Positions 2,731-18,590 of a DNA stretch of 64,000 nucleotides are shown one piece after another; the stretch's first letter is position 1; each line of letters starts with the position of its first letter. This stretch comes from an uncultured Bacilli bacterium (GTDB lineage: Bacteria > Bacillota_I > Bacilli_A > RF39 > UBA660), in assembly GCA_934101185.1 (NCBI GenBank), contig CAKOQD010000001.1, positions 100,960-164,959 of the forward strand, written 5' to 3'. The notes under the pieces were generated by a model. That model saw only the letters and a program-made list of their open reading frames with translations, was not told the origin of the DNA and made no database searches. Position numbers and translations under genes: made by a program.

Positions 2731-3981
2731 TTATAACTTAAGCACCTGTCCCACTGAAAGTGTATTACCAGAAAGTCCATTAAGACTCTTTATCCTATCA
2801 ACCGTAGTATTATTATCCCTAGCAATACCATACAAAGTATCACCTCTTTTAACAACATAAGTCTTTATATTCGCACTATCAGGAATAACAAGCTGTTGCC
2901 CTATAGAAAGAACACTACTACTAAGCTTATTCGCATTCTTTAACTCATCTACACTAATACCATATAAATTAGCAATCTTATACAAACTATCTCCCTTAAC
3001 AACAGTATAAACCTTAACACTTGCATTATTCTCACTAGAAAGTCCAGGTATCAAAAGCTCTTGCCCAATTGACAAACTATTACTACTAAGACTATTCAAC
3101 CTCTTAATATCCTCTACACTAACACCATAACTCTTAGCAATACCATACAAACTATCACCCTTTTTAACATAATAAACACTAGTATCACTTTTCTCTACAA
3201 TATCAGGAATTCTAAGAACCTGTCCAATAGAAAGAACATTACTAGTAAGTTTATTAAAAGTTTTTAAATCCTCAACCGAAACATCATAAAGCCTAGCAAT
3301 ACTATATAAACTATCACCCTTCTTAACCGTATAATAATCTCCCTTCGAAGTAGGAACATAATCATTCTTAGTATAAATAGCAATAGCTCTAACAACAGCC
3401 TCACCATAATCCTCATAATTATTAACAAACTTATTCAAATCATTACTATTATTAACACTAGCATAATTAATAATTACACTCTCACTATCACCAGTATTTC
3501 TAATTATATAATCACTATCAAACGCAGTATCCTCTTCCATTCTAAGTTGATAATACTTATTAATATCAATATCACTATTTTCAAACTGTTCTGCCAAAAT
3601 CTTAGCAAACCTATCACTATCTCTAAGAGCATAAATAATCTCAACCCCAGGAACCGAAGACGAAGACAACCCATTCGTAATAACAATAACATCATCACTA
3701 AAACCAAAACTACTATCTATAAAATCAATTCTCTCATCCAAACTAATATTATTATCACCAGTCCTAGTAATAACATTTTCTATTCCAAGCTCATCAAGTC
3801 TATTTTTTATATAATTAGAAACAAGTAAAGAAACATTCTTCTCAAGAACATTACCACTCTTAAGACCAGTATCACTACCTCCACCAACAGGATTAATTAC
3901 CACTTTATAATTCATAAAAATCACCAATAAATTATATGAAAAAATAAAAAAAATAGCACAAAGGCTATAAAACAATCTCAT
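2731..3981 (-). CDS. N-acetylmuramoyl-L-alanine amidase (Amidase_3) with four C-terminal LysM repeats
   Basis: N-terminal TM segment, amidase_3 core (VVINPVGGGSDTG..EKNVSLLVSNYIKNRL), and four repeats of YxVKKGDSLYxIAxxYxVSVEDxK..LSIGQxLxIP. Confidence 0.8.
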   Translation of the reverse strand: MRLFYSLCAIFFIFSYNLLVIFMNYKVVINPVGGGSDTGLKSGNVLEKNVSLLVSNYIKNRLDELGIENVITRTGDNNISLDERIDFIDSSFGFSDDVIVITNGLSSSSVPGVEIIYALRDSDRFAKILAEQFENSDIDINKYYQLRMEEDTAFDSDYIIRNTGDSESVIINYASVNNSNDLNKFVNNYEDYGEAVVRAIAIYTKNDYVPTSKGDYYTVKKGDSLYSIARLYDVSVEDLKTFNKLTSNVLSIGQVLRIPDIVEKSDTSVYYVKKGDSLYGIAKSYGVSVEDIKRLNSLSSNSLSIGQELLIPGLSSENNASVKVYTVVKGDSLYKIANLYGISVDELKNANKLSSSVLSIGQQLVIPDSANIKTYVVKRGDTLYGIARDNNTTVDRIKSLNGLSGNTLSVGQVLKL

Positions 3982-5137: not shown

Positions 5138-5626
5138 CTATTTTTCCTTCCTCAAGCACTTCAAATCACTAAGACTATAATCATCAAGTAAATTAACATC
5201 AAACTCCACTACACCATCTATATTATTCAAAAAATACTCATCCTTAATAATTTCACTTAATAAAACATCATTCTTAATAAAAGAATACAAATCATACAAA
5301 GTAATTCCACACACACTAAAAAAACAAAAACCATTCTCCAAACTAAAATCATTAACAAAAGACTCAAACTCCATAAAAGAAACCAAAACAAATACATAAA
5401 AACTAACTAATAAAACATACTTATCCCTAAACCTCATCTTCTTAAACATAACATTCTCCATTAATTGCTTCTTCATTTTTATAATAATCTTTCTCTCTAA
5501 CGTAACATCATATAAAAAATTATCAATCCTTCCATCTTTATAATAAACAAAAATCTCATCATCAATAACCTTATACTTAATAATAAAATCATCATCAATA
5601 TATCTGCAATCCTTCACTATAATCAC
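5138..5626 (-). CDS. hypothetical protein with a central TM segment, paralog of the 4482-5081 gene
   Basis: C-terminal KDEYFLNNIDG...YSLSDLKCLR matches the neighbouring gene. Hydrophobic core YVLLVSFYVFVLVSF. Confidence 0.4.
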   Translation of the reverse strand: MIIVKDCRYIDDDFIIKYKVIDDEIFVYYKDGRIDNFLYDVTLERKIIIKMKKQLMENVMFKKMRFRDKYVLLVSFYVFVLVSFMEFESFVNDFSLENGFCFFSVCGITLYDLYSFIKNDVLLSEIIKDEYFLNNIDGVVEFDVNLLDDYSLSDLKCLRKEK

Positions 5627-5692
5627 CTACTAATTATATTGCAATAAATAAAAAAATATGCTATAATATGAAAACAAAAAAGGAGTGATAAA

Positions 5693-6226
5693 ATGGGATA
5701 CCCATGGCAATGTTCTGACTGTATATGGTTAGATATGAAAGACTCTTCATGGAGAGGTTTTAGATGCACTAAAAAAGGAATATATGTAAACCCAGAAGAA
5801 AGAAGTTGTAATAATCATTTTGAAAAGAAAAATGAAAGCTCTAGCACTTGTTATTTAACTACCGCTATGTGTGAAATACTAAATGAAAAAGATGACTGCT
5901 ACATCCTAGAAACACTAAGATCTTTCAGAGACAACATAATGAAAAATGATGAAAACTGCATCCCTTTACTTGAAGAATACGACGTAATCGGACCACAAAT
6001 ATGTAAAAAACTATACCAAGATGAGCAAAAAGAAGTTATTGCAAGAAGTATGTTATATTTAAGAATATATCCTGCGATTAATGCTATAAAAAATGAAAAA
6101 TATGATGATGCTATAGAAATATATAAAGATATGACTGAATTACTAAAAGAAAAATACAACGTAAAATATGAATGCACTAAAACTACAACACAAAATAAAA
6201 CTAAAAAACTAAATCTACAATACTAA
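5693..6226 (+). CDS. Cys-rich (zinc-ribbon-like) hypothetical protein
   Basis: AGGAGTG RBS. N-terminal CSDC-x14-C-x13-C plus further Cys residues (STCY, AMCE, DDCY, ENCI). Confidence 0.5.
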   Translation: MGYPWQCSDCIWLDMKDSSWRGFRCTKKGIYVNPEERSCNNHFEKKNESSSTCYLTTAMCEILNEKDDCYILETLRSFRDNIMKNDENCIPLLEEYDVIGPQICKKLYQDEQKEVIARSMLYLRIYPAINAIKNEKYDDAIEIYKDMTELLKEKYNVKYECTKTTTQNKTKKLNLQY

Positions 6227-6256
6227 AAAGAAACCACATTAGGTTTCTTTTTTTAT
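6227..6256. terminator. bidirectional rho-independent terminator between convergent genes
   Basis: aaagaaacc/ggtttcttt 9-bp stem flanked by T-runs on both strands. Confidence 0.6.
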
Positions 6257-8541
6257 TCACTTCTAAGAGCAACAACAGGATCCTTACTTCTAGCAACTTT
6301 CGCAGGAATAAATCCTCCTATTAAAGTAAGAACTACACTAACACTAATAAGTATAATAGCATGACTAACACTAAGACTTGCAACACCTTTCAAATCAGAT
6401 AACTTATATATAATATTATTAACAGGAATAGTAAGCAAAACCGCAATACCTATTCCAATAAGACCACTAGTAATACCAATAATAAATGTTTCTGAATTAA
6501 ACACCCTAGTTATATCCTTCTTTCTAGCACCAAGTGCACGAAGTATCCCAATCTCTTTAGTACGCTCTAAAACACTGATATAAGTAATAATACCAATCAT
6601 TATACTAGAAACAACTAAAGAAATAGAACTAAATGCAACAAGAACAATCGTAATAGCATCCATTATATTACCAGAAAGTAAACTAATCATCTTAGCCATA
6701 TCAGTATATAAAATCTTATCATCATCACTCTTACCATCATTATATTTATCCAAATAAGATAAAATCTTTTCTTTAGAACCAAAATCTTTTGGATAAAGCA
6801 TTATATAATTAGGAACACTATCATCACCTAAATATCCAAGAACACTTTCCTTAGTTACACTATCATCAAACTTTTGATAAGTCAAAACATTATAATCACT
6901 ATTCTTTTGATCATTAACTATCTTAGAATCTTTATTAACATCAATTATCTTATTAACAAGTGATGAAGTATATAAAACACCACTACTAACAGACAACATC
7001 TCTTTATCTTTTTTACAACGAATAATAGCTTGAATCTTAATACTCATACTACTCTTATCATTATACATATTTTCATAATCAGTACCCATCATATAATAAC
7101 CATTATTAAATTGATAAAACGAATCATTAAAAATAACCTTAAATTCTTTAGACAATAAATCATCAAAACTAACATCCTTAGAAACATCAAAACCGAGAGA
7201 TTTCAAAACATTCTTATCAACTTGATTATATTTATCTACAACAAGAATAAGTCCAGGAACACTTGTATTAATCTTACCCATAACTACATCATAATTACTT
7301 TCTACAACACCAACACTATCATTAGGATTATCAGGAAACACATTCCAAGAATAATTATCATTACCTAAATTAGCACTCTTTATATATTGATAATTATCTC
7401 CATCAAAAGTAATAACATTTATACTTGTACTTCTAAGATATGAAATACCTCCAAGTAAAGACTTATCAATATCAGAAACATATGAAACATAAGAAGAAGT
7501 AATTTTATTAACATGAGTAGCTTTTTCTAAAACATCATCCTTTGGCACTATAAACTTTTCACTTGTATATTCATGATACTTAGTATCAGAAGAAGACTTC
7601 ATAACATCAGACATTTCTATAGCCTGTTCACTTATAGTAATAGGCATTTGTGATAAAGACTCCCTTTCAAACTCATCAACTTTACCCTGAAATCCATTAG
7701 ATAAAGACAAAATAAGAGCAATACCAATTATACCAATCGAAGAAGCAAAACAAGTAAGTAAAGTTCTACCCTTTTTAGTAATTATATTAGTAAAAGAAAG
7801 CTTTAAAGCAGTCAAAAATGACATCGAAGTCTTTCTAAAACTATAACTACTAGAATCTTCTTCATCATAAGGATTAGAATCATCAACGATCTTTCCATCC
7901 TTTAAACTAATAATTCTACTTGAGTACTCCCTAGCAAGTTCACTATTATGAGTAACCATAATAACAAGCTTATCCTTAGATATTTCTTTAATTAAATCCA
8001 TAATTTGAACACTAGTAACAGAATCAAGTGCTCCAGTAGGTTCATCTGCCAAAATAATATCAGGATCATTCACCAAAGCACGAGCAATCGCAACCCTTTG
8101 CATTTGCCCACCAGATAACTGATTAGGCTTTTTATTAGCATGATCCAAAAGACCCACTCTAGAAAGAGCATCCATTGCCTTCTTCTTTCTTTCTCTTCTA
8201 GAAACACCAGAAAGAGTCATTCCAAGTTCTACATTACTTAAAACACTAATATGAGGAATCAAATTATAACTTTGAAAAATAAAGCCTACAGAATTATTCC
8301 TATAACTATCCCAATCTCTATCTCTAAACCTTCTAGTAGACTTACCATTTATAATCAAGTCCCCACTGTCGTACTTATCTAAACCACCAATTATATTTAA
8401 AAAAGTTGTCTTGCCACTTCCAGAAGGACCAAGAATACTAACAAACTCACTACTTCTAAATTTTACACTAACATCATCTAAAGCCTTTTGAACAAAATCC
8501 CCAGTTTTATAACTCTTAACTATATGCTTAACCTCTAACAT
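6253..8541 (-). CDS. fused ABC transporter ATP-binding/permease protein (MacB/FtsX-like)
   Basis: Walker [10 protein letters not shown], signature [15 protein letters not shown], Walker [12 protein letters not shown]. Large extracytoplasmic domain and C-terminal FtsX-like 4-TM permease. Start refined to MLEVKHIV behind GGAGGA. Confidence 0.85.
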
Positions 8542-12007: not shown

Positions 12008-13042
12008 TTATTTAAACAACTTACTCTTTATGTTCTTTAAAGTTACCAATTTAAAATAACTATAAGGTTTGTATATCACACTAATTTTACCTATATACTC
12101 CTCAATTCCTTCAGCATGAGTAAAACCAGTTTTAAATCTATAAAGTCCATTATCCTTTTCTAAATAGATTATTCCACCAAAATTATAAGTCTTACATCCT
12201 CTTTCAATTCCCCATTTTATCATTTCTGTTTGCATCTTATAATTTGGCATTAAATGTCTTTTTTCATTAGAACTAGCACCATAAACATAATAAAGCTCAT
12301 TTCCATAACATATTGAAATTGCACCTGAAAGTGCCTCACCATCTTTTTCAACGATATATATTCTTAAAGTATCCTCATCATAAGCATTTAACATTCTTTT
12401 TAAATATTCATAAGGCCTTGCACCAATTTTATCTCTTACAACTGTTGTCTTATATATATCATAAAAAATCTCTAAATCTTTTTCATCATGAGAATATCTT
12501 ACTTTCAAATCATGTTTATCAGCTAAATTTATATTATACCTTGTTTTTTGCTTAAACTCTTGTTTTAAATCATCAATAGTTTTACCCTCTAAATAAAGCT
12601 TTGCTTCGAACTTAGGATTAATAAAATCATGTGGATCCGAATTTTTCTTTTGCGTAGTATATCCATTTTTATTTAAGATTTTCTTTAAATTCTCATCATT
12701 TTTTATCGGAGGATCAAACGTTAAAACATAAGCATTATATTTCTTAGCGATTTTTTTAGCTTCATCCATTAACTCATTCAAAGTCTTAATATCATATATA
12801 TCACATATCGGACCACGTGGAGAATACATAAAAGTAACATTAGTATTTGGTATTTCTTGAATCAATATCATCATCGCAGCATATATCTCATCATCTTTCT
12901 TTAAATAAATACACTCCTCTTTCCAATTATTCTTAACTTGTCCCCAATTAATATTTTGCATAAAACTAACATAATCTTGTTTTTCTAAAAAATCATTATA
13001 TTGTTTAACTTCTTCCTTATTTTTTAAATCTAATACTGCCAT
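12008..13042 (-). CDS. FemAB/MurM-family peptidoglycan interpeptide-bridge aminoacyltransferase
   Basis: Fem-family signature (KTRYNINLA; YIVEKDGEALSGAISICYGNELYYVYGASS). Confidence 0.65.
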   Translation of the reverse strand: MAVLDLKNKEEVKQYNDFLEKQDYVSFMQNINWGQVKNNWKEECIYLKKDDEIYAAMMILIQEIPNTNVTFMYSPRGPICDIYDIKTLNELMDEAKKIAKKYNAYVLTFDPPIKNDENLKKILNKNGYTTQKKNSDPHDFINPKFEAKLYLEGKTIDDLKQEFKQKTRYNINLADKHDLKVRYSHDEKDLEIFYDIYKTTVVRDKIGARPYEYLKRMLNAYDEDTLRIYIVEKDGEALSGAISICYGNELYYVYGASSNEKRHLMPNYKMQTEMIKWGIERGCKTYNFGGIIYLEKDNGLYRFKTGFTHAEGIEEYIGKISVIYKPYSYFKLVTLKNIKSKLFK

Positions 13043-13128
13043 TGTACTGCACTCCTTCTAACCTATATTATAAGTACTTAATTAGATTATAGCATATTAA
13101 AAAACAATAAACAATAAAAACATCAAAG

Positions 13129-13149
13129 AAAAAAAGCACTAAACGTGCT
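13129..13149 (-). terminator. rho-independent terminator after the DUF368 gene
   Basis: agcac-taaac-gtgct stem plus T-run. Confidence 0.5.
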
Positions 13150-14038
13150 AATTATCTAATTTCTTTCTCAAAACTTCAAGTCCATAAACAATTATTCCAC
13201 CAATTATAAAGAATAATATACTAAAAGTTCCAAAACTCATTGCTTCCTGTGGCACTTCCAAACTTGTTGGACCCATAACTATTGCATATATTGAACCAAC
13301 CATCAAACCAAGAACTAAATAAATAGTTTGAGATCTATATTTATCAAGAGCCTTCTTTATAATCTTAACAATTAAAAGCATTCCTGTAATAACTCCAAGT
13401 CCAAATATTATTAATATTGGTAAAACCTTAAAATTAAAATGTAAAAACTCACTAATCGAAGTAATAATTGGAACATAAAGACCAAATATAAGCAAAAGTG
13501 TTGAACCAGATATACCAGGAACTACCATCGCAGAAATAGCAATAACTCCCGCGAAAAACAAATATAACAAAAGTCCTACATTAAGATTATTAAGATCAAT
13601 ACTACTTCCTCCCCCAACAGGATTAAAATAAGTAATAAGACAAACTATCAAAATACCAATAAAGGCATAAAATAAATATCCATATTTTCCCTTTAATGTA
13701 TCTTTTTCATCCCTAACTATTAAAGGAATAGCAAACACTATAAAACCTATAAATACTGAACTAACACTATATATATGTTTTTCAAATAAACTAGAAAGCA
13801 CAATTGATGCAAGTGCCATACCAATTGCCCAACCAATACCAAGCTTAATCAAAAATGATACTGCCTTCTTTTTACTTTGTCCTTTACTAATCAAAGCATT
13901 AATACTATTAATAAACTCTTCATAAAAACCTAATATAAATGCAACAGTACCCCCAGATATACCAGGAACACTATCAGCAAGCGCCATACAAAATCCTTGT
14001 ACCACATTAACTATATTCTTTTTCATTTCCTTTTTCAC
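13148..14038 (-). CDS. DUF368 family membrane protein (family recently implicated in undecaprenyl-phosphate translocation)
   Basis: Duplicated VPGISGG/VPGISGS motifs (ADSVPGISGGTVAFILG; AMVVPGISGSTLLLIFG) in a polytopic membrane protein. Confidence 0.65.
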   Translation of the reverse strand: MKKEMKKNIVNVVQGFCMALADSVPGISGGTVAFILGFYEEFINSINALISKGQSKKKAVSFLIKLGIGWAIGMALASIVLSSLFEKHIYSVSSVFIGFIVFAIPLIVRDEKDTLKGKYGYLFYAFIGILIVCLITYFNPVGGGSSIDLNNLNVGLLLYLFFAGVIAISAMVVPGISGSTLLLIFGLYVPIITSISEFLHFNFKVLPILIIFGLGVITGMLLIVKIIKKALDKYRSQTIYLVLGLMVGSIYAIVMGPTSLEVPQEAMSFGTFSILFFIIGGIIVYGLEVLRKKLDN

Positions 14039-15056
14039 CTTTTCCTCTTTTTTTATTATAATGGAATATTAAATAAAATGCAAAACTTAATAAAATTAAT
14101 AAATAAAAACTAATACTCCTCTGAAGTAACATACTAGATAAAACATAATCTTTCTTATATAACAATTCATTAACAGACAAAATAATTCCCTCCAAAACCA
14201 TAACTCCTCCAGGTGTTGGTAAAAAGTCAGAAGCAATAACAATACAAACTTGAAAAGCAATTATTGCAAAAACACTGTAATCATTAAGACCAAATGATTT
14301 ATATATAAAATAACTAACTAACAAAAAACTTATCCTCTGAAGTAAAAGAATAATAAATGATTTAACAAATATAATCGGTCTATCTTTAGTAAAATTAGAT
14401 AAATCATTATACTTATTAACCATTTCATCAAGTCTTTTCTTCTTAATATCCTTATTCTTTATAAAACCAAACTTATTTATAAAAAAATCAACCATTCTTT
14501 CAGTAAACTTTATTGTTTTCTTTGAATATACCAAACTTATAAAAAATATAATAACAACTAAATTAAGTAAAAAACCAAGTATTATTAAAACATTAAAAAC
14601 ACTAGAAAAATCAAATATCAAACGACCATAAAATACTAAAGATAAAATAAGTAAAAATATCAAAGTAAACTTATAAATAATAGTATTAAGTAAAACTATT
14701 ATACTTGATTTATAATAATCAATTCCATCTCTTTTCATTTCATACATTTGAATAGGCTGTCCCCCCATCGAAGAAGGAGTAATACCAGAAAAATATATTT
14801 CTGTAAACACATAACCAAGCGCTTTATAAAGACTCATTTTAATACCCATATCTTTAGAAATACTAATTAAAAACAATGCCTCAAATAAAGGAAACATCAA
14901 AATTGATAATACCGCTAATAAAATATATTTCAAATTGCAAAGCCTTAAAGACTTAATAAGCATATTAATATCATAATACTTAAATATCCATAAATAAGTT
15001 ATCAAAAAAAGTACAATAAAAAGTATAAACGATAAAACATATTTCTTTTTCTTCAT
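14007..15056 (-). CDS. flippase-like / lysylphosphatidylglycerol-synthase TM-region family (UPF0104) membrane protein
   Basis: Polytopic membrane protein with GITPSSMGGQPIQMY-type motif. Confidence 0.5.
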   Translation of the reverse strand: MKKKKYVLSFILFIVLFLITYLWIFKYYDINMLIKSLRLCNLKYILLAVLSILMFPLFEALFLISISKDMGIKMSLYKALGYVFTEIYFSGITPSSMGGQPIQMYEMKRDGIDYYKSSIIVLLNTIIYKFTLIFLLILSLVFYGRLIFDFSSVFNVLIILGFLLNLVVIIFFISLVYSKKTIKFTERMVDFFINKFGFIKNKDIKKKRLDEMVNKYNDLSNFTKDRPIIFVKSFIILLLQRISFLLVSYFIYKSFGLNDYSVFAIIAFQVCIVIASDFLPTPGGVMVLEGIILSVNELLYKKDYVLSSMLLQRSISFYLLILLSFAFYLIFHYNKKRGKGEKGNEKEYS

Positions 15057-15152
15057 ATTTCACCTACCTCAAACACACTATATCTATTCTAACATAATTT
15101 TATTAAAAAAATATTTATTTTACACAAATATATGTAAAAAGAAGTAAACCAA

Positions 15153-15629
15153 CTACTTCTTTATCTTATCAAAATAAATATCACTATCACTACTAGAATA
15201 CTTCTTTATCGCAGAAACTATTTTCTCATCATAAGTATAATTATATCCTACAAAAGATTCATCCCCAATTATATAATAAGGAATCCCACTTGACTTATCC
15301 CCTTTTGCAAGAAGAAACTCCTTCATAAGATTAGCATTTTCTGAATTATGCCACACTTCAAATCCATACAAATTAAACTTATTACCATACTTATCATTAA
15401 TATCATCCAAATACTTTATAAGCTTTTCACAATGAGGACACTCTTTTCCATAAAACAAATAAATATTAATCATTCCATCTTCTTTTTTTATCTCATCAAC
15501 CGTAGCATTCTTATTTACCACATTATCTACTGATTTATTATTAAAAAATGCAAAATAAGAAAGAAAACAAAGTATTAAAATAGTAATAACTATAAAAACA
15601 ATATCAATTTTATTCTTCACTTTAACCAC
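15153..15629 (-). CDS. membrane-anchored thioredoxin-fold thiol:disulfide oxidoreductase (DsbA-like CPHC)
   Basis: N-terminal TM helix followed by a thioredoxin fold containing FYGKECPHCEKL. Confidence 0.55.
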   Translation of the reverse strand: MVKVKNKIDIVFIVITILILCFLSYFAFFNNKSVDNVVNKNATVDEIKKEDGMINIYLFYGKECPHCEKLIKYLDDINDKYGNKFNLYGFEVWHNSENANLMKEFLLAKGDKSSGIPYYIIGDESFVGYNYTYDEKIVSAIKKYSSSDSDIYFDKIKK

Positions 15630-15631
15630 CT

Positions 15632-16480
15632 CTAAAAATTAAACATTAACCACTCAGGCTTTATAACCATCAAAATACCTAAAAGTAACATAATTATTCC
15701 CCCAATTAAATGAGAATACTTAGTATACTTATTAGAAATACCTTTTATTTTTAATGTTTTCATTGCTATAACAAATATTACTATATCATCAATTAAAAAG
15801 AAAAGCAAATATAATCCAATATAAATTACATACTCTAAAGTACTAAGATCATTCATAGCTAAAACATTCGTAAACATAACAGGTATCCCAAGCGAACAAA
15901 GAAGTTCAATTAAATTAACAGAAAAAGCAAGTAATATAATTCCAATTATTGATAATAAAAAACTCTTTTCAGTAACTATTTTTTTAATTCTTTCCATTAT
16001 TTTAAGCCTTTTCTTCTTATCAGTAACATCACAACCCACATCACTATTTAAACTCTTAATATATCTATAAATATTAACCATTCCAAACAAAACAGCAAAA
16101 CTAGCAATTAAAAATCTTATTAAAACAACACTATTAAGAAAACTAGCAAGACTAAACCAAGAAACCATAAAACATAAATAAACAAAACCACTAGTAAAAA
16201 TAAAAGTAAGTCCTAATATCCACATTTTCTTTCTATCATGCATAGAAAACATCATCGTAATAAGAAATATAAGTATCCACATAGCACAAGGATTAAACCC
16301 ATCAACAGCACCCAATATAATAGTAAAAATAGGTAAAGAAACATCCTTTAAAGAAACCACTCCAAACAAACCAGTATCAACAGAATAAGAATCCATTCCA
16401 TATACACAAACCGGTAAAAACATAACTAAAACTATTAAAAATAAATATATAAACCTTCTACACTTCATCAATACCACCAT
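15632..16480 (-). CDS. CcdA/DsbD-like polytopic membrane protein with conserved Cys (probable disulfide-relay membrane component)
   Basis: GAVDGFNPCAMWIL and ELLCSLGIP Cys residues in TM segments. Translationally coupled to the flanking redox genes. Confidence 0.4.
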   Translation of the reverse strand: MVVLMKCRRFIYLFLIVLVMFLPVCVYGMDSYSVDTGLFGVVSLKDVSLPIFTIILGAVDGFNPCAMWILIFLITMMFSMHDRKKMWILGLTFIFTSGFVYLCFMVSWFSLASFLNSVVLIRFLIASFAVLFGMVNIYRYIKSLNSDVGCDVTDKKKRLKIMERIKKIVTEKSFLLSIIGIILLAFSVNLIELLCSLGIPVMFTNVLAMNDLSTLEYVIYIGLYLLFFLIDDIVIFVIAMKTLKIKGISNKYTKYSHLIGGIIMLLLGILMVIKPEWLMFNF

Positions 16481-16739
16481 TATCCTTTAAAAAAGAAATA
16501 AGCCTACTATCACTAACTTCTCCAACTAATCTAGCAACCTCTAAAGAAGAATCCATCAATATATAAACAGGAAGCACACTTCCAACATCATACAAAGAAA
16601 TTAAAGAAGAATCCATATCATAATCAATATCCTCTATGTCAAATAAAACATTATACTTAGACAAAACATCATCAAGTAAATTATTCATAATAATACAAGA
16701 CATACACCACATAGCACTAATCTTAACCAATTTCATCAT
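16458..16739 (-). CDS. small thioredoxin-like protein (WCxxC)
   Basis: 93 aa with an AMWCMSC active-site-like motif and a cis-Pro region VLPVYIL. Confidence 0.5.
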   Translation of the reverse strand: MMKLVKISAMWCMSCIIMNNLLDDVLSKYNVLFDIEDIDYDMDSSLISLYDVGSVLPVYILMDSSLEVARLVGEVSDSRLISFLKDNGGIDEV

Positions 16740-17829
16740 ATTCCTCCATTAACTTATCTAAAACACTTAAAAAATAATCAATCTCATCATCTAAAGTCTT
16801 ATAAGAAAGACTTATCCTAATACTAGAACTAGCTCTATCTTTATCTTTATAAATCTCATAAACACAAAGCGAATAACTAGTATCACTACTACAAGCAGTT
16901 TTAGTAGAAACATAAACTCCATGATCAGCAAAATACTTTTGAACAACATTTGAATCCTTTCCCATAAAACTAATATTTAAAATATTATCTATACAATAAT
17001 CATTACTATTAATAAGAATACTATCATACTTAGATAAATGTTCTCTTATCCTTTTATTAAGACGATTAACATAAGAAAAATCATTATTAAACAATAAAAA
17101 AGCCTTAGATAAAGAACAAATAAGCTCAGTCTGAGGAGTCCCACTCCTATAAATAGTAGTACTTTTTCCTCCGTGAATAAGCGGAACAATCTTAACATTT
17201 CTCTTCTTTATTAAACCACCAATTCCTTTAAAACAAAAAAGCTTATGTCCAGAAAAACTTGCCATATCAACATTACTTAAATCAATATCAGTCTTAGAAA
17301 CAGCCTGAGTAATATCACTATGAAACAAAACATTAGGATACTTCTTAAGCATAAGACCAATCTCCTCAATTGGTTGTCTAAGTCCAATCTCACTATTAAC
17401 ACATCCAATAGAAACAAGACAAGTATTATCATTAATTAATTCCTCTAACTTTTCTATATCAACAATACCATTTTCATCCAAAGGAGCAAAAATAACTTTA
17501 TAACCCTTCTTTTGTAAATAACTACATGGACCATATATTGAAGAATGTTCCAACTTAGTAGTAATAATCTCATTACCAGAAGAACAAATACCCTTTAAAA
17601 CAGTATTATTACTCTCACTAGCACCACTAGTAAAAATAATCTCATCATCAAAAATATTAAAATAATTACAAATATTAGAAATACTAGAACTAATTATATC
17701 ATTACACTTTTTACCTATATCATGATTAGAATTAGGATTAGCATAAAAATTATTACAAACATAATTAAAATAATCTAAAACTTCTTTATCTACTTTAGTC
17801 GTAGCACTATAATCTAAATAAACTTCCAT
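16723..17829 (-). CDS. cysteine desulfurase (class V aminotransferase, NifS/IscS family)
   Basis: MEVYLDYSATT, PLP-Lys motif SFSGHKLFCFKGIGGL, and FTSGASESNN. Confidence 0.75.
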   Translation of the reverse strand: MEVYLDYSATTKVDKEVLDYFNYVCNNFYANPNSNHDIGKKCNDIISSSISNICNYFNIFDDEIIFTSGASESNNTVLKGICSSGNEIITTKLEHSSIYGPCSYLQKKGYKVIFAPLDENGIVDIEKLEELINDNTCLVSIGCVNSEIGLRQPIEEIGLMLKKYPNVLFHSDITQAVSKTDIDLSNVDMASFSGHKLFCFKGIGGLIKKRNVKIVPLIHGGKSTTIYRSGTPQTELICSLSKAFLLFNNDFSYVNRLNKRIREHLSKYDSILINSNDYCIDNILNISFMGKDSNVVQKYFADHGVYVSTKTACSSDTSYSLCVYEIYKDKDRASSSIRISLSYKTLDDEIDYFLSVLDKLMEEYDEIG

Positions 17830-17912
17830 TAATATCACCACAATAAGTATAAATATAAACTATATATAAAAGCAATAAAAAAGAAGTTGAACTAACTAAA
17901 CCATAGGTTGAA

Positions 17913-18590
17913 TTAATTACAATCTTCTAAATTAAGTGGTATTTTGTAATTAGTAGTCTTCCCATCAAAAGACGTTGCATTAATCTCAATATACATATCC
18001 AAATCTTTACAAACATTCTTATAATTCGAAGTCACAAAACTAACTCCCTTTAAATACTCCTCTAAAGTAACATTCTTATTATTAGAATAATCACACTCTT
18101 TTACCTTAACAGTAACATCACCATGACTCTCATACAAATTACAAGTAATTAAACTATACTTAGTAACATCATCCCCACCACAATAATCTATACTAGATAC
18201 ATATATCGAAGACTTATCCTTATTATAAGAAATACTACCAGTAATATTAAAATCATTACAAGAAGAAGACAAAGTCTTAAAATTAAAATCATTATCATGA
18301 AAAAATATACAATGAATAATACAAAAAAGTATAAAAACACCAAATATTACAAAAAGAACCTTATAATTAAAACCCTTTTTACTAGATCTTCCCTCAAGTA
18401 AATCATCTATATTAACATTAAACTCTTTACTAATTTGCTTTAAAATCATAATATCAGGAATATTCTTACCATTTTCCCACTTACTAACAGCCTGATAAGT
18501 AACACCAAGCCTACAAGCAAAATCTTTCTGAGTAAGACCATTATCAGTTCTTATTTTCTTTATAAACTTTCCAATCTTTTCCTGTTCCAT
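17913..18590 (-). CDS. membrane-anchored XRE-family HTH protein with a Cys-rich extracytoplasmic domain
   Basis: N-terminal HTH_XRE (LTQKDFACRLGVTYQAVSKWENGKNIP), one TM helix, and a C-terminal domain with 6 Cys. Confidence 0.6.
   Translation of the reverse strand: MEQEKIGKFIKKIRTDNGLTQKDFACRLGVTYQAVSKWENGKNIPDIMILKQISKEFNVNIDDLLEGRSSKKGFNYKVLFVIFGVFILFCIIHCIFFHDNDFNFKTLSSSCNDFNITGSISYNKDKSSIYVSSIDYCGGDDVTKYSLITCNLYESHGDVTVKVKECDYSNNKNVTLEEYLKGVSFVTSNYKNVCKDLDMYIEINATSFDGKTTNYKIPLNLEDCN

Follow-up and report, generated by a model that had tools for sequence, protein, structure and literature searches.

Organization of the four-gene locus

The window analysed here is a 64,000-nt stretch of an uncultured Bacilli genome (GCA_934101185.1, contig CAKOQD010000001.1, positions 100,960-164,959 of the forward strand), and all positions refer to it. 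Its open reading frames (ORFs) include four close-packed minus-strand genes that span 15153-17841 and encode a cysteine desulfurase, a small thioredoxin (mini-Trx), a polytopic membrane protein (the carrier) and a membrane-anchored redoxin with a CPHC motif. Sequence, predicted structure and gene context, on which the functional statements below rest, strongly point to a transmembrane thiol-disulfide relay with the mini-Trx inside, the carrier with its three cysteines in the membrane and the CPHC redoxin outside. The features of the locus, in order of transcription, are:

16723-17829, minus strand: desulfurase gene, 368 aa from ATG (ORF and Pfam Aminotran_5 match; the frame is open to a GTG at 17841).
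16458-16739, minus strand: mini-Trx gene, 92-93 aa, motif WCMSC (ORF and Pfam Thioredoxin match).
15632-16480, minus strand: membrane carrier gene, 282 aa, motifs GFNPCAMW and LCSLGIP (ORF).
15153-15629, minus strand: gene of an anchored, extracytoplasmic glutaredoxin/thioredoxin (Grx/Trx)-like CPHC protein (ORF and sub-threshold Trx-like matches).
15136-15160, minus strand: terminator-like AT-rich hairpin, AGAAGTA-N7-TACTTCT followed by TTTT (read by eye).

The initial annotation had described four overlapping or abutting minus-strand genes here, and all four ORFs were recovered with the motifs it gave. The coding regions of desulfurase and mini-Trx overlap by 14-17 nt, those of mini-Trx and carrier by 11-23 nt, and 2 nt separate the carrier from the CPHC gene. 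The hairpin and its T-run overlap the stop codon of the CPHC gene, the last of the four; the hairpin is not called by a consensus terminator scan that needs ≥3 G-C pairs, and on this weak evidence it is the probable 3′ end of the transcription unit. As the initial annotation stated, no NifU/IscU/SufE scaffold adjoins the desulfurase: neither the window nor any of 59 related loci has one, and NifU, IscU, MnmA and ThiI are likewise absent from its neighbourhood in all of these. Gene order and sequence together argue strongly for translational coupling of the desulfurase to the relay in Bacilli, with no scaffold or other sulfur acceptor encoded.

Conservation of the desulfurase, mini-Trx and carrier genes

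The operon is strongly conserved. Among the 72 species-level loci that have enough upstream DNA to be informative, a count that includes related lineages and is phylogenetically non-independent, the carrier gene is adjoined by mini-Trx in 62, by desulfurase in 56 and by both in 55. The desulfurase lies directly upstream in 55 of the 62 mini-Trx-bearing loci, with desulfurase identities of 39-98%. Pfam annotation of contigs at 95%, 71% and 64% identity gives the same order (Aminotran_5, Thioredoxin, carrier) between wholly different flanks. All-against-all clustering of approximately 1100 neighbouring ORFs finds carrier, mini-Trx and desulfurase to be the only co-conserved families, and their adjacency and orientation hold down to 39% desulfurase and ~47% carrier identity while the surroundings change. 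Since the arrangement recurs in dozens of species with unrelated flanks, it is far beyond chance, and the desulfurase can be regarded as a dedicated cytoplasmic partner of the relay that is specific to Bacilli.

Four loci carry a gene between desulfurase and mini-Trx. NifU or IscU was considered for this position and rejected, as the intervening genes encode dCMP-deaminase-like or pentapeptide-repeat proteins. A cytochrome c maturation set was also rejected, there being no such genes among the co-conserved families; the alternative feared in the initial annotation, a housekeeping iscS beside an unrelated ccdA-resA set, thus finds no support, because nothing else is co-conserved.

A simpler account of the gene order is that the desulfurase is the housekeeping NifS/IscS of small genomes, an inherited neighbour with no mechanistic link to the relay. 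No sequence feature of the enzyme ties it to a Trx, it is missing from some loci, the four loci just described contain unrelated inserted genes, and all loci with a desulfurase come from related Bacilli lineages, so that shared ancestry adds to the count. Against this, adjacency is kept at the low identities given above despite changed surroundings, the coding regions overlap with no NifU or IscU adjoining, and at least one lineage (locus L033) possesses a SUF system that includes a SufS. We judge a mere inherited neighbour to be very unlikely.

The desulfurase

The enzyme, a protein of the PLP-dependent class-V aminotransferase fold, matches Pfam Aminotran_5 at 200.9 bits and aligns over its full length with the Thermotoga maritima NifS-like protein (PDB: 1ecx, E = 1e-58). 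In this alignment it retains the lysine that binds pyridoxal phosphate (SFSGHK), the histidine of EHSS and the catalytic loop STKTACSS, which bears out the earlier assignment as NifS/IscS-like. Six residues (His95, Asp172, Gln175, Lys196, Cys313 and Arg338) do not vary across 56 operon-linked copies (39-98% identity), in which no cysteine other than Cys313 is conserved. By these residues the desulfurase is predicted to be catalytically intact. Its clade is less sharply defined: the placement as group-I NifS/IscS-like stands, but no equivalog-level assignment can be made, as the scores of 259 bits (NifS), 243 bits (IscS) and 236 bits (DndA) fall far below every NCBIfam cutoff (531, 548-643 and 480 bits, respectively). 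Because scores of ~236-260 bits compare with cutoffs of 480-643 bits, the enzyme is best described, on its sequence, as a group-I NifS/IscS-like desulfurase of a distinct subfamily.

At locus L033, from a metagenome-assembled Bacilli genome, a sufC-sufD-sufS cluster lies 4 kb from the operon (5586-8343). This separate system argues that the lineage has its own Fe-S machinery, SufS included, and that the operon desulfurase is additional and dedicated. The same locus encodes an extremely cysteine-rich ORF of 97 aa (3686-3979) ahead of sufC-sufD-sufS and a few kb downstream of mini-Trx and carrier. In the complete genome of Izemoplasma sp. B36 (L075, 4004-6129) a 465-aa Lpd-like oxidoreductase and a Sir2-like deacetylase are encoded directly upstream of the desulfurase; the 465-aa protein is a class-I pyridine-nucleotide disulfide oxidoreductase with the motif GGTCLNEGCIP.

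Dedicated group-I desulfurases of Bacillus subtilis are encoded beside a specific client, as in the pairs YrvO-MnmA, NifZ-ThiI and NifS-NadA. The operon resembles these pairs in placing the desulfurase beside a presumed client with no general scaffold. It differs in that the neighbour is a CxxC redoxin with a membrane relay and not a thiolation or cofactor enzyme.

The mini-thioredoxin

The second gene product matches Pfam Thioredoxin at 29.1 bits (cutoff 23.5) and, at 92-93 aa with the site WCMSC, is the WCxxC mini-thioredoxin that had been proposed. It scores below the TIGR01068 equivalog (32.5 bits versus a cutoff of 96.8). The site is non-canonical (compare WCGPC); within the family, whose members are 77-97 aa long, it takes the form WCx[S/G/A]C, and no member lacks the CxxC. 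The protein has no signal peptide and is predicted to be cytoplasmic.

A membrane family with three invariant cysteines

The 282-aa carrier has no Pfam, NCBIfam or PDB sequence match, and a PDB profile search with the carrier family matched only the Grx/Trx domain that most relatives carry. A word-indexed homologue search returned >7000 matches, none of which has a Pfam domain in the membrane part, and when 1.84 billion representatives were scanned exhaustively with HMMER, the family came to 2045 clusters at 50% identity (E ≤ 1e-3). A scan for the family's sequence pattern in a single genome of each species gave at least 596 confirmed family matches among those listed. The hosts among these listed matches are small-genome Bacilli [metagenome-assembled genomes from Hadza and other guts, Erysipelotrichaceae, ‘Tenericutes’, Izemoplasma], many Patescibacteria of the candidate phyla radiation (CPR) and one DPANN archaeon. 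Public names of members are ‘hypothetical’, ‘thioredoxin family protein’, ‘glutaredoxin’ and, once, ‘CcdA/thiol-disulfide isomerase’. Several low-GC, Bacilli- or CPR-like contigs are labelled Muribaculaceae, Ignavibacteriales, Pseudomonadales or Gammaproteobacteria (L009, L016, L022, L048, L049, L052, L058, L065, L076, L079 and L083), which are probably binning or labelling errors.

Three cysteines, C65, C150 and C195, are invariant across 150 diverse representatives. C65 lies in the motif DGFNPCAMW and C195 in N..E..CS.G.P; the 282-aa sequence contains no CxxC or CxC motif. An AlphaFold2 model built from a deep alignment [predicted local distance difference test (pLDDT) 84.4, predicted template modelling score (pTM) 0.79] has an N-terminal signal-anchor helix, a short hairpin and six transmembrane (TM) helices. 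In the model TM1 is broken at residues 61-64 beside C65 and TM4 at residues 195-198, at C195 itself; C150 sits in a K/R-rich loop ahead of an amphipathic helix. Lysine and arginine make up 11 of 43 residues in the predicted inside loops and 2 of 42 in the outside loops. This distribution orients the model so that the N- and C-termini would be outside, C150 cytoplasmic, and C65 and C195 mid-membrane. The topology check that had been proposed for the cysteines therefore yields two mid-membrane positions and one cytoplasmic position. The earlier description of cysteines in TM segments holds for GFNPCAMW and LCSLGIP, which fall in TM1 and TM4, but it overlooked C150, which is likewise invariant and lies in a loop on the cytoplasmic side. 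By sequence the carrier defines a large, unannotated membrane family with three invariant cysteines, whichever way the relay runs.

The outside domain and its fusion to the carrier

The best Pfam match of the CPHC protein is Thioredoxin_2 (25 bits, cutoff 27), and all of its matches are sub-threshold. Its soluble domain of ~105 aa has a profile that fits Grx and small Trx structures best, so that the protein appears to be a small Grx/Trx-like fold. The initial annotation called it DsbA-like; a membrane-anchored CPHC redoxin it is, but the DsbA fold with its helical insert does not fit a domain of this size. The active site is that of DsbA (CPHC), whereas the inserted helical domain of DsbA (~190 aa, Pfam DSBA) is not matched in the window protein, and DSBA matches of relatives are weak (best E = 1.3e-4).

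The CPHC protein is homologous to the N-terminal domain of fused carriers such as P0114. A typical family member of ~400 aa runs from a signal peptide through a Grx/Trx-like CxHC domain to the membrane domain, and the fusion is present in 77 of 82 loci, the window representing a small split clade. Genes 3 and 4 are thus separate in the window, as annotated, but this is the minority form. Because the two are fused in most relatives, carrier and CxHC domain are most simply read as one functional unit. In P0122 the outside domain is fused at the C-terminus instead, which fits an outward-facing C-terminus of the carrier. Of ~125 members, 85 have CPHC as the outside motif, and most others have CSHC, CGHC or CVHC. 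At two loci (L025, 7116-7580; L031, 6525-7037) the carrier-fused domain is joined by a second CPHC Trx-like protein with an anchor of its own; this could be a free, client-facing oxidoreductase.

Three single cysteine stations in the carrier also invite another explanation, in which sulfane sulfur (S0) itself is handed from mini-Trx via C150, C195 and C65 to the outside domain and exported, or in which the three cysteines hold an Fe-S or other sulfur cofactor. The odd number of invariant cysteines would suit either version, as would a dedicated desulfurase with no known acceptor in a group of bacteria whose group-I desulfurases typically sit beside their own acceptor, as the YrvO-MnmA and NifZ-ThiI pairs do. 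Passage of sulfur is difficult to reconcile with the strict CxxC of both soluble partners, which would resolve a persulfide to a disulfide and H2S, and with the occurrence of the CPR carrier beside thioredoxin reductase (TrxR) and Grx, with no desulfurase. As for the cofactor, Pfam and NCBIfam scans detect no metal- or cluster-binding signature. We regard a sulfur relay or cofactor as improbable.

Relationship to DsbD and CcdA

The carrier had been described as outside the CcdA signature, and it does fail the DsbD/CcdA hidden Markov models: the window protein matches neither DsbD_TM (PF02683) nor DsbD_2 (PF13386), even at E ≤ 10. Five of 84 relatives match DsbD_2. The highest score, 22.7 bits, belongs to P0349 and stays below the cutoff of 24.9; here TM1-3 of P0349 pair with the second of the model's repeats. 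HHalign comparison with three canonical DsbD_2 proteins from CPR and archaeal loci gave nothing above a reversed-sequence control, nor did comparison of carrier TM1-3 with TM4-6. With Foldseek, CcdA (PDB: 5vkv) was the top but non-significant match for a weak carrier model, and there was none for the good model. Membership of the DsbD/CcdA family is therefore only near-threshold and not established.

The layout is nonetheless similar. Like the Trx-DsbD/CcdA/ScsB systems, the operon by its gene context combines a cytoplasmic Trx-type partner (62 of 72 loci) with an outside Trx-fold domain that is fused or adjacent. The model shares with DsbD/CcdA a six-TM core, one redox cysteine each in mid-membrane breaks of TM1 and TM4, and termini outside. 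Unlike DsbD/CcdA, which have two essential Pro-Cys cysteines, the carrier has three invariant ones, set in NPC in TM1 and in LxCSxGxP, with no preceding proline, in TM4. Its partner is a desulfurase, its outside motif is CxHC, and its own motifs (DGFNPCAMW and N..E..CS.G.P) are distinct. Sequence and model are consistent with a carrier that works like DsbD/CcdA and, if related to them at all, is so only very distantly and has one invariant cysteine more.

Relatives in CPR bacteria and archaea

The CPR and archaeal loci have no desulfurase. In four of them (L064, L069, L087 and L088) a YruB-family Grx (CPYC or CSYC) and a TrxR lie immediately upstream of the carrier; the reductase scores 313 bits with TIGR01292 and has the redox motif CLTC. 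Three others (L086, L038 and L082) have only a mini-Trx beside the carrier, and L089-L091 have no adjacent partner, L089 having a TrxR-like gene 2 kb upstream. The core of carrier and outside domain is thus widespread, with a variable cytoplasmic input. In CPR this input would be a reducing system, and there the conduit probably runs in the reducing direction.

Other genes recur near the CPR and DPANN carriers. Redox islands contain genes for an ArsR-type helix-turn-helix (HTH) protein, an ArsP_1 permease and a CPNC-type Thioredoxin_3 protein of ~80 aa, and in many cases a gene for a canonical DsbD_2 protein as well (L086, 325-3045; L087, 465-3096; L088, 2218-3833; L074, 5842-7505; L081, 8789-11702). 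Small genes for DUF134 (putative DNA-binding) and DUF5320 proteins flank the carrier in several CPR loci (L079, 7041-7334; L082, 2537-3128; L084, 2281-2829; L088, 6744-7226).

Direction of flow and a candidate oxidizing relay

The initial annotation left the choice between a reducing relay and persulfide handling. A transmembrane relay beside a desulfurase is borne out, but no choice had been made between the two and an oxidizing relay had not been considered. Since the persulfide of the desulfurase would naturally oxidize a CxxC redoxin, we favour the possibility that the desulfurase is the dedicated cytoplasmic driver of a relay that carries disulfides outward with no need of quinones. From sequence, model and gene context we find this plausible, if a little short of probable. 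In such a relay the desulfurase would turn L-cysteine into alanine and form a persulfide on Cys313; the dithiol of mini-Trx would attack the persulfide, release H2S and become a disulfide; and disulfide exchange would then pass from mini-Trx to C150, to the C195/C65 pair and on to the outside CPHC domain. The latter would oxidize exported proteins, electrons flowing inward to cysteine-derived S0. The outcome would be disulfide formation independent of quinones and oxygen in putative non-respiring anaerobes.

The chemistry of this scheme has precedents. A persulfide formed by a desulfurase-rhodanese protein oxidizes the roGFP2 dithiol to a disulfide with release of H2S (PMC12319549). S0 oxidizes Trx1 and DsbA anaerobically and rescues Escherichia coli dsbB mutants (PMC11921322). 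The chemistry of the former, the CyReB desulfurase-rhodanese/roGFP2 couple, and that of polysulfide correspond to the proposed first step, in which persulfide or S0 oxidizes a dithiol and H2S leaves; CyReB, however, is an engineered sensor and the polysulfide effect one of environmental chemistry, and no dedicated natural pathway or membrane relay of this kind is known. The outside motif, overwhelmingly the oxidase-type CxHC, also counts toward outward transfer of disulfides. So, weakly, do the exported proteins encoded at these loci, which show no depletion of cysteine and tend to have even cysteine counts.

Several observations weigh against an oxidizing relay. The Grx and TrxR beside carriers of the same family in CPR are a reducing input, and parsimony would have every member of the family run the same way. 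CxHC is found in those CPR members too, so that the motif does not discriminate between directions. Mini-Trx occurs with no adjacent desulfurase in seven loci (six Bacilli, one CPR), and the residue before its CxxC (Trp versus Gly) is associated with desulfurase presence at p = 0.04, which is marginal for loci that are phylogenetically non-independent. The even bias of the exported proteins is weak: by a crude signal-peptide heuristic 46 have even and 33 odd cysteine counts (binomial p = 0.18; p = 0.047 versus cytoplasmic proteins). Finally, the housekeeping TrxR could return oxidized mini-Trx to its reduced state, which would make a futile cycle.

Much of this would suit a conventional relay of the DsbD/CcdA type, in which mini-Trx is reduced by the housekeeping TrxR and electrons pass via the carrier to the CPHC domain, itself a reductase or isomerase or a donor to repair enzymes. 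The desulfurase would then be co-expressed for a separate reason, for example so that mini-Trx can release its sulfide or keep Cys313 reduced. The CPR arrangement, including the TrxR-like gene of L089, is what this relay predicts, the seven loci where mini-Trx stands by itself agree with it, and so does the weak DsbD_2 signal in five of 84 members. To our knowledge, moreover, all characterized DsbD, CcdA and ScsB carriers primarily export reducing power. Left unexplained is the coupled desulfurase in 55 of 62 loci, where no other acceptor is encoded, and its persulfide would drain electrons from the very mini-Trx meant to export them. No TrxR adjoins the operon in the Bacilli loci, and no usual client of a reductive pathway is found among the co-conserved neighbours. 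The outside motif is the oxidase-type CxHC and not one of the CxPC-like motifs, which are typical of ResA, CcmG and TlpA. Taking both sides together, we judge a conventional reducing relay in Bacilli to be less likely than the oxidizing one, but it is the main and a serious rival.

That a relay of this general build can serve oxidation is seen in Streptococcus gordonii, where CcdA2 and SdbB serve both a reducing pathway and the oxidase SdbA (PMC7034828); CcdA-type relays can therefore take part in oxidative folding. The SdbA-SdbB-CcdA2 system (PMC7034828) resembles the operon in that a Gram-positive multi-TM carrier works with an outside Trx-like protein, and differs from it in using a canonical CcdA, with no desulfurase and an unknown ultimate acceptor. 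The oxidizing relay shares its proposed outcome, an outside CPHC redoxin kept oxidized by a membrane partner, with DsbA-DsbB, DsbA-VKOR and MauE. DsbB, VKOR and MauE use quinones and CxxC or CXC sites, whereas the carrier has neither motif nor any Pfam match, and the acceptor proposed here is cysteine-derived S0.

Implications of a possible cysteine-fuelled relay

Known de novo disulfide generators pass electrons to oxygen (Ero1/Erv) or to quinones (DsbB, VKOR and MauE). The operon may encode a third kind, in which desulfurase-derived S0 acts through mini-Trx and the three-cysteine carrier on the outside CPHC domain, a proposal we make tentatively and hold to be short of probable. Full-text literature searches brought up no account of the operon or of the carrier family. 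DsbB, VKOR and MauE are all missing from about 20% of surveyed species. The oxidant of DsbA-like proteins in quinone-less anaerobic Firmicutes has been drawn as a question mark (PMC12453122), and the operon is a concrete candidate to fill this acknowledged gap.

Were the relay oxidizing, cysteine would fuel the oxidative folding of proteins in non-respiring anaerobes such as the gut Bacilli, Izemoplasma and their relatives, and H2S and alanine would be left as by-products. Folding would thereby be tied to the breakdown of cysteine and to H2S production in the gut. A quinone-free, disulfide-forming module could then also be of use in anaerobic protein production. Hundreds of uncultured species, from the gut as well as from the environment, carry the operon. 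Stated conservatively, the sequences describe what looks like a relay whose carrier belongs to an unclassified family and whose desulfurase partner is without precedent. Direction aside, this is an unexpected, conserved partnership of sulfur mobilization and envelope redox control.

Genomic surroundings

By Pfam and NCBIfam matches the operon is flanked on one side by an XRE-type membrane regulator, MscL and ClpB, and on the other by a flippase-like protein, PopT and a FemX-like protein. The regulator gene (17913-18590, minus strand) sits 72 bp upstream of the desulfurase operon; its product has an XRE/HTH_3 DNA-binding domain, one TM helix and a ~130-aa extracytoplasmic tail with six cysteines. 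It could be an envelope redox sensor or a regulator of the operon. As a general component of the system it was rejected, since it is found upstream of the operon only in close relatives (L003, L006 and L007).

Downstream, an envelope cluster (12008-15056, minus strand) encodes the flippase-like LPG_synthase_TM protein, the polyprenyl-phosphate transporter PopT and the FemX-like peptidoglycan branch transferase; it shows no co-conservation with the relay genes. A downstream ABC-ATPase/FtsX fusion was considered as a client and rejected, its adjacency being inconsistent and the window copy having only two cysteines.

The window as a whole has ~28% G+C (23-34% across bins), and nearly all of its long ORFs lie on the minus strand. 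GC skew is negative in almost every 2-kb bin from 1 to 64000, which suggests that the whole window lies on one replichore with a strong gene-strand bias.

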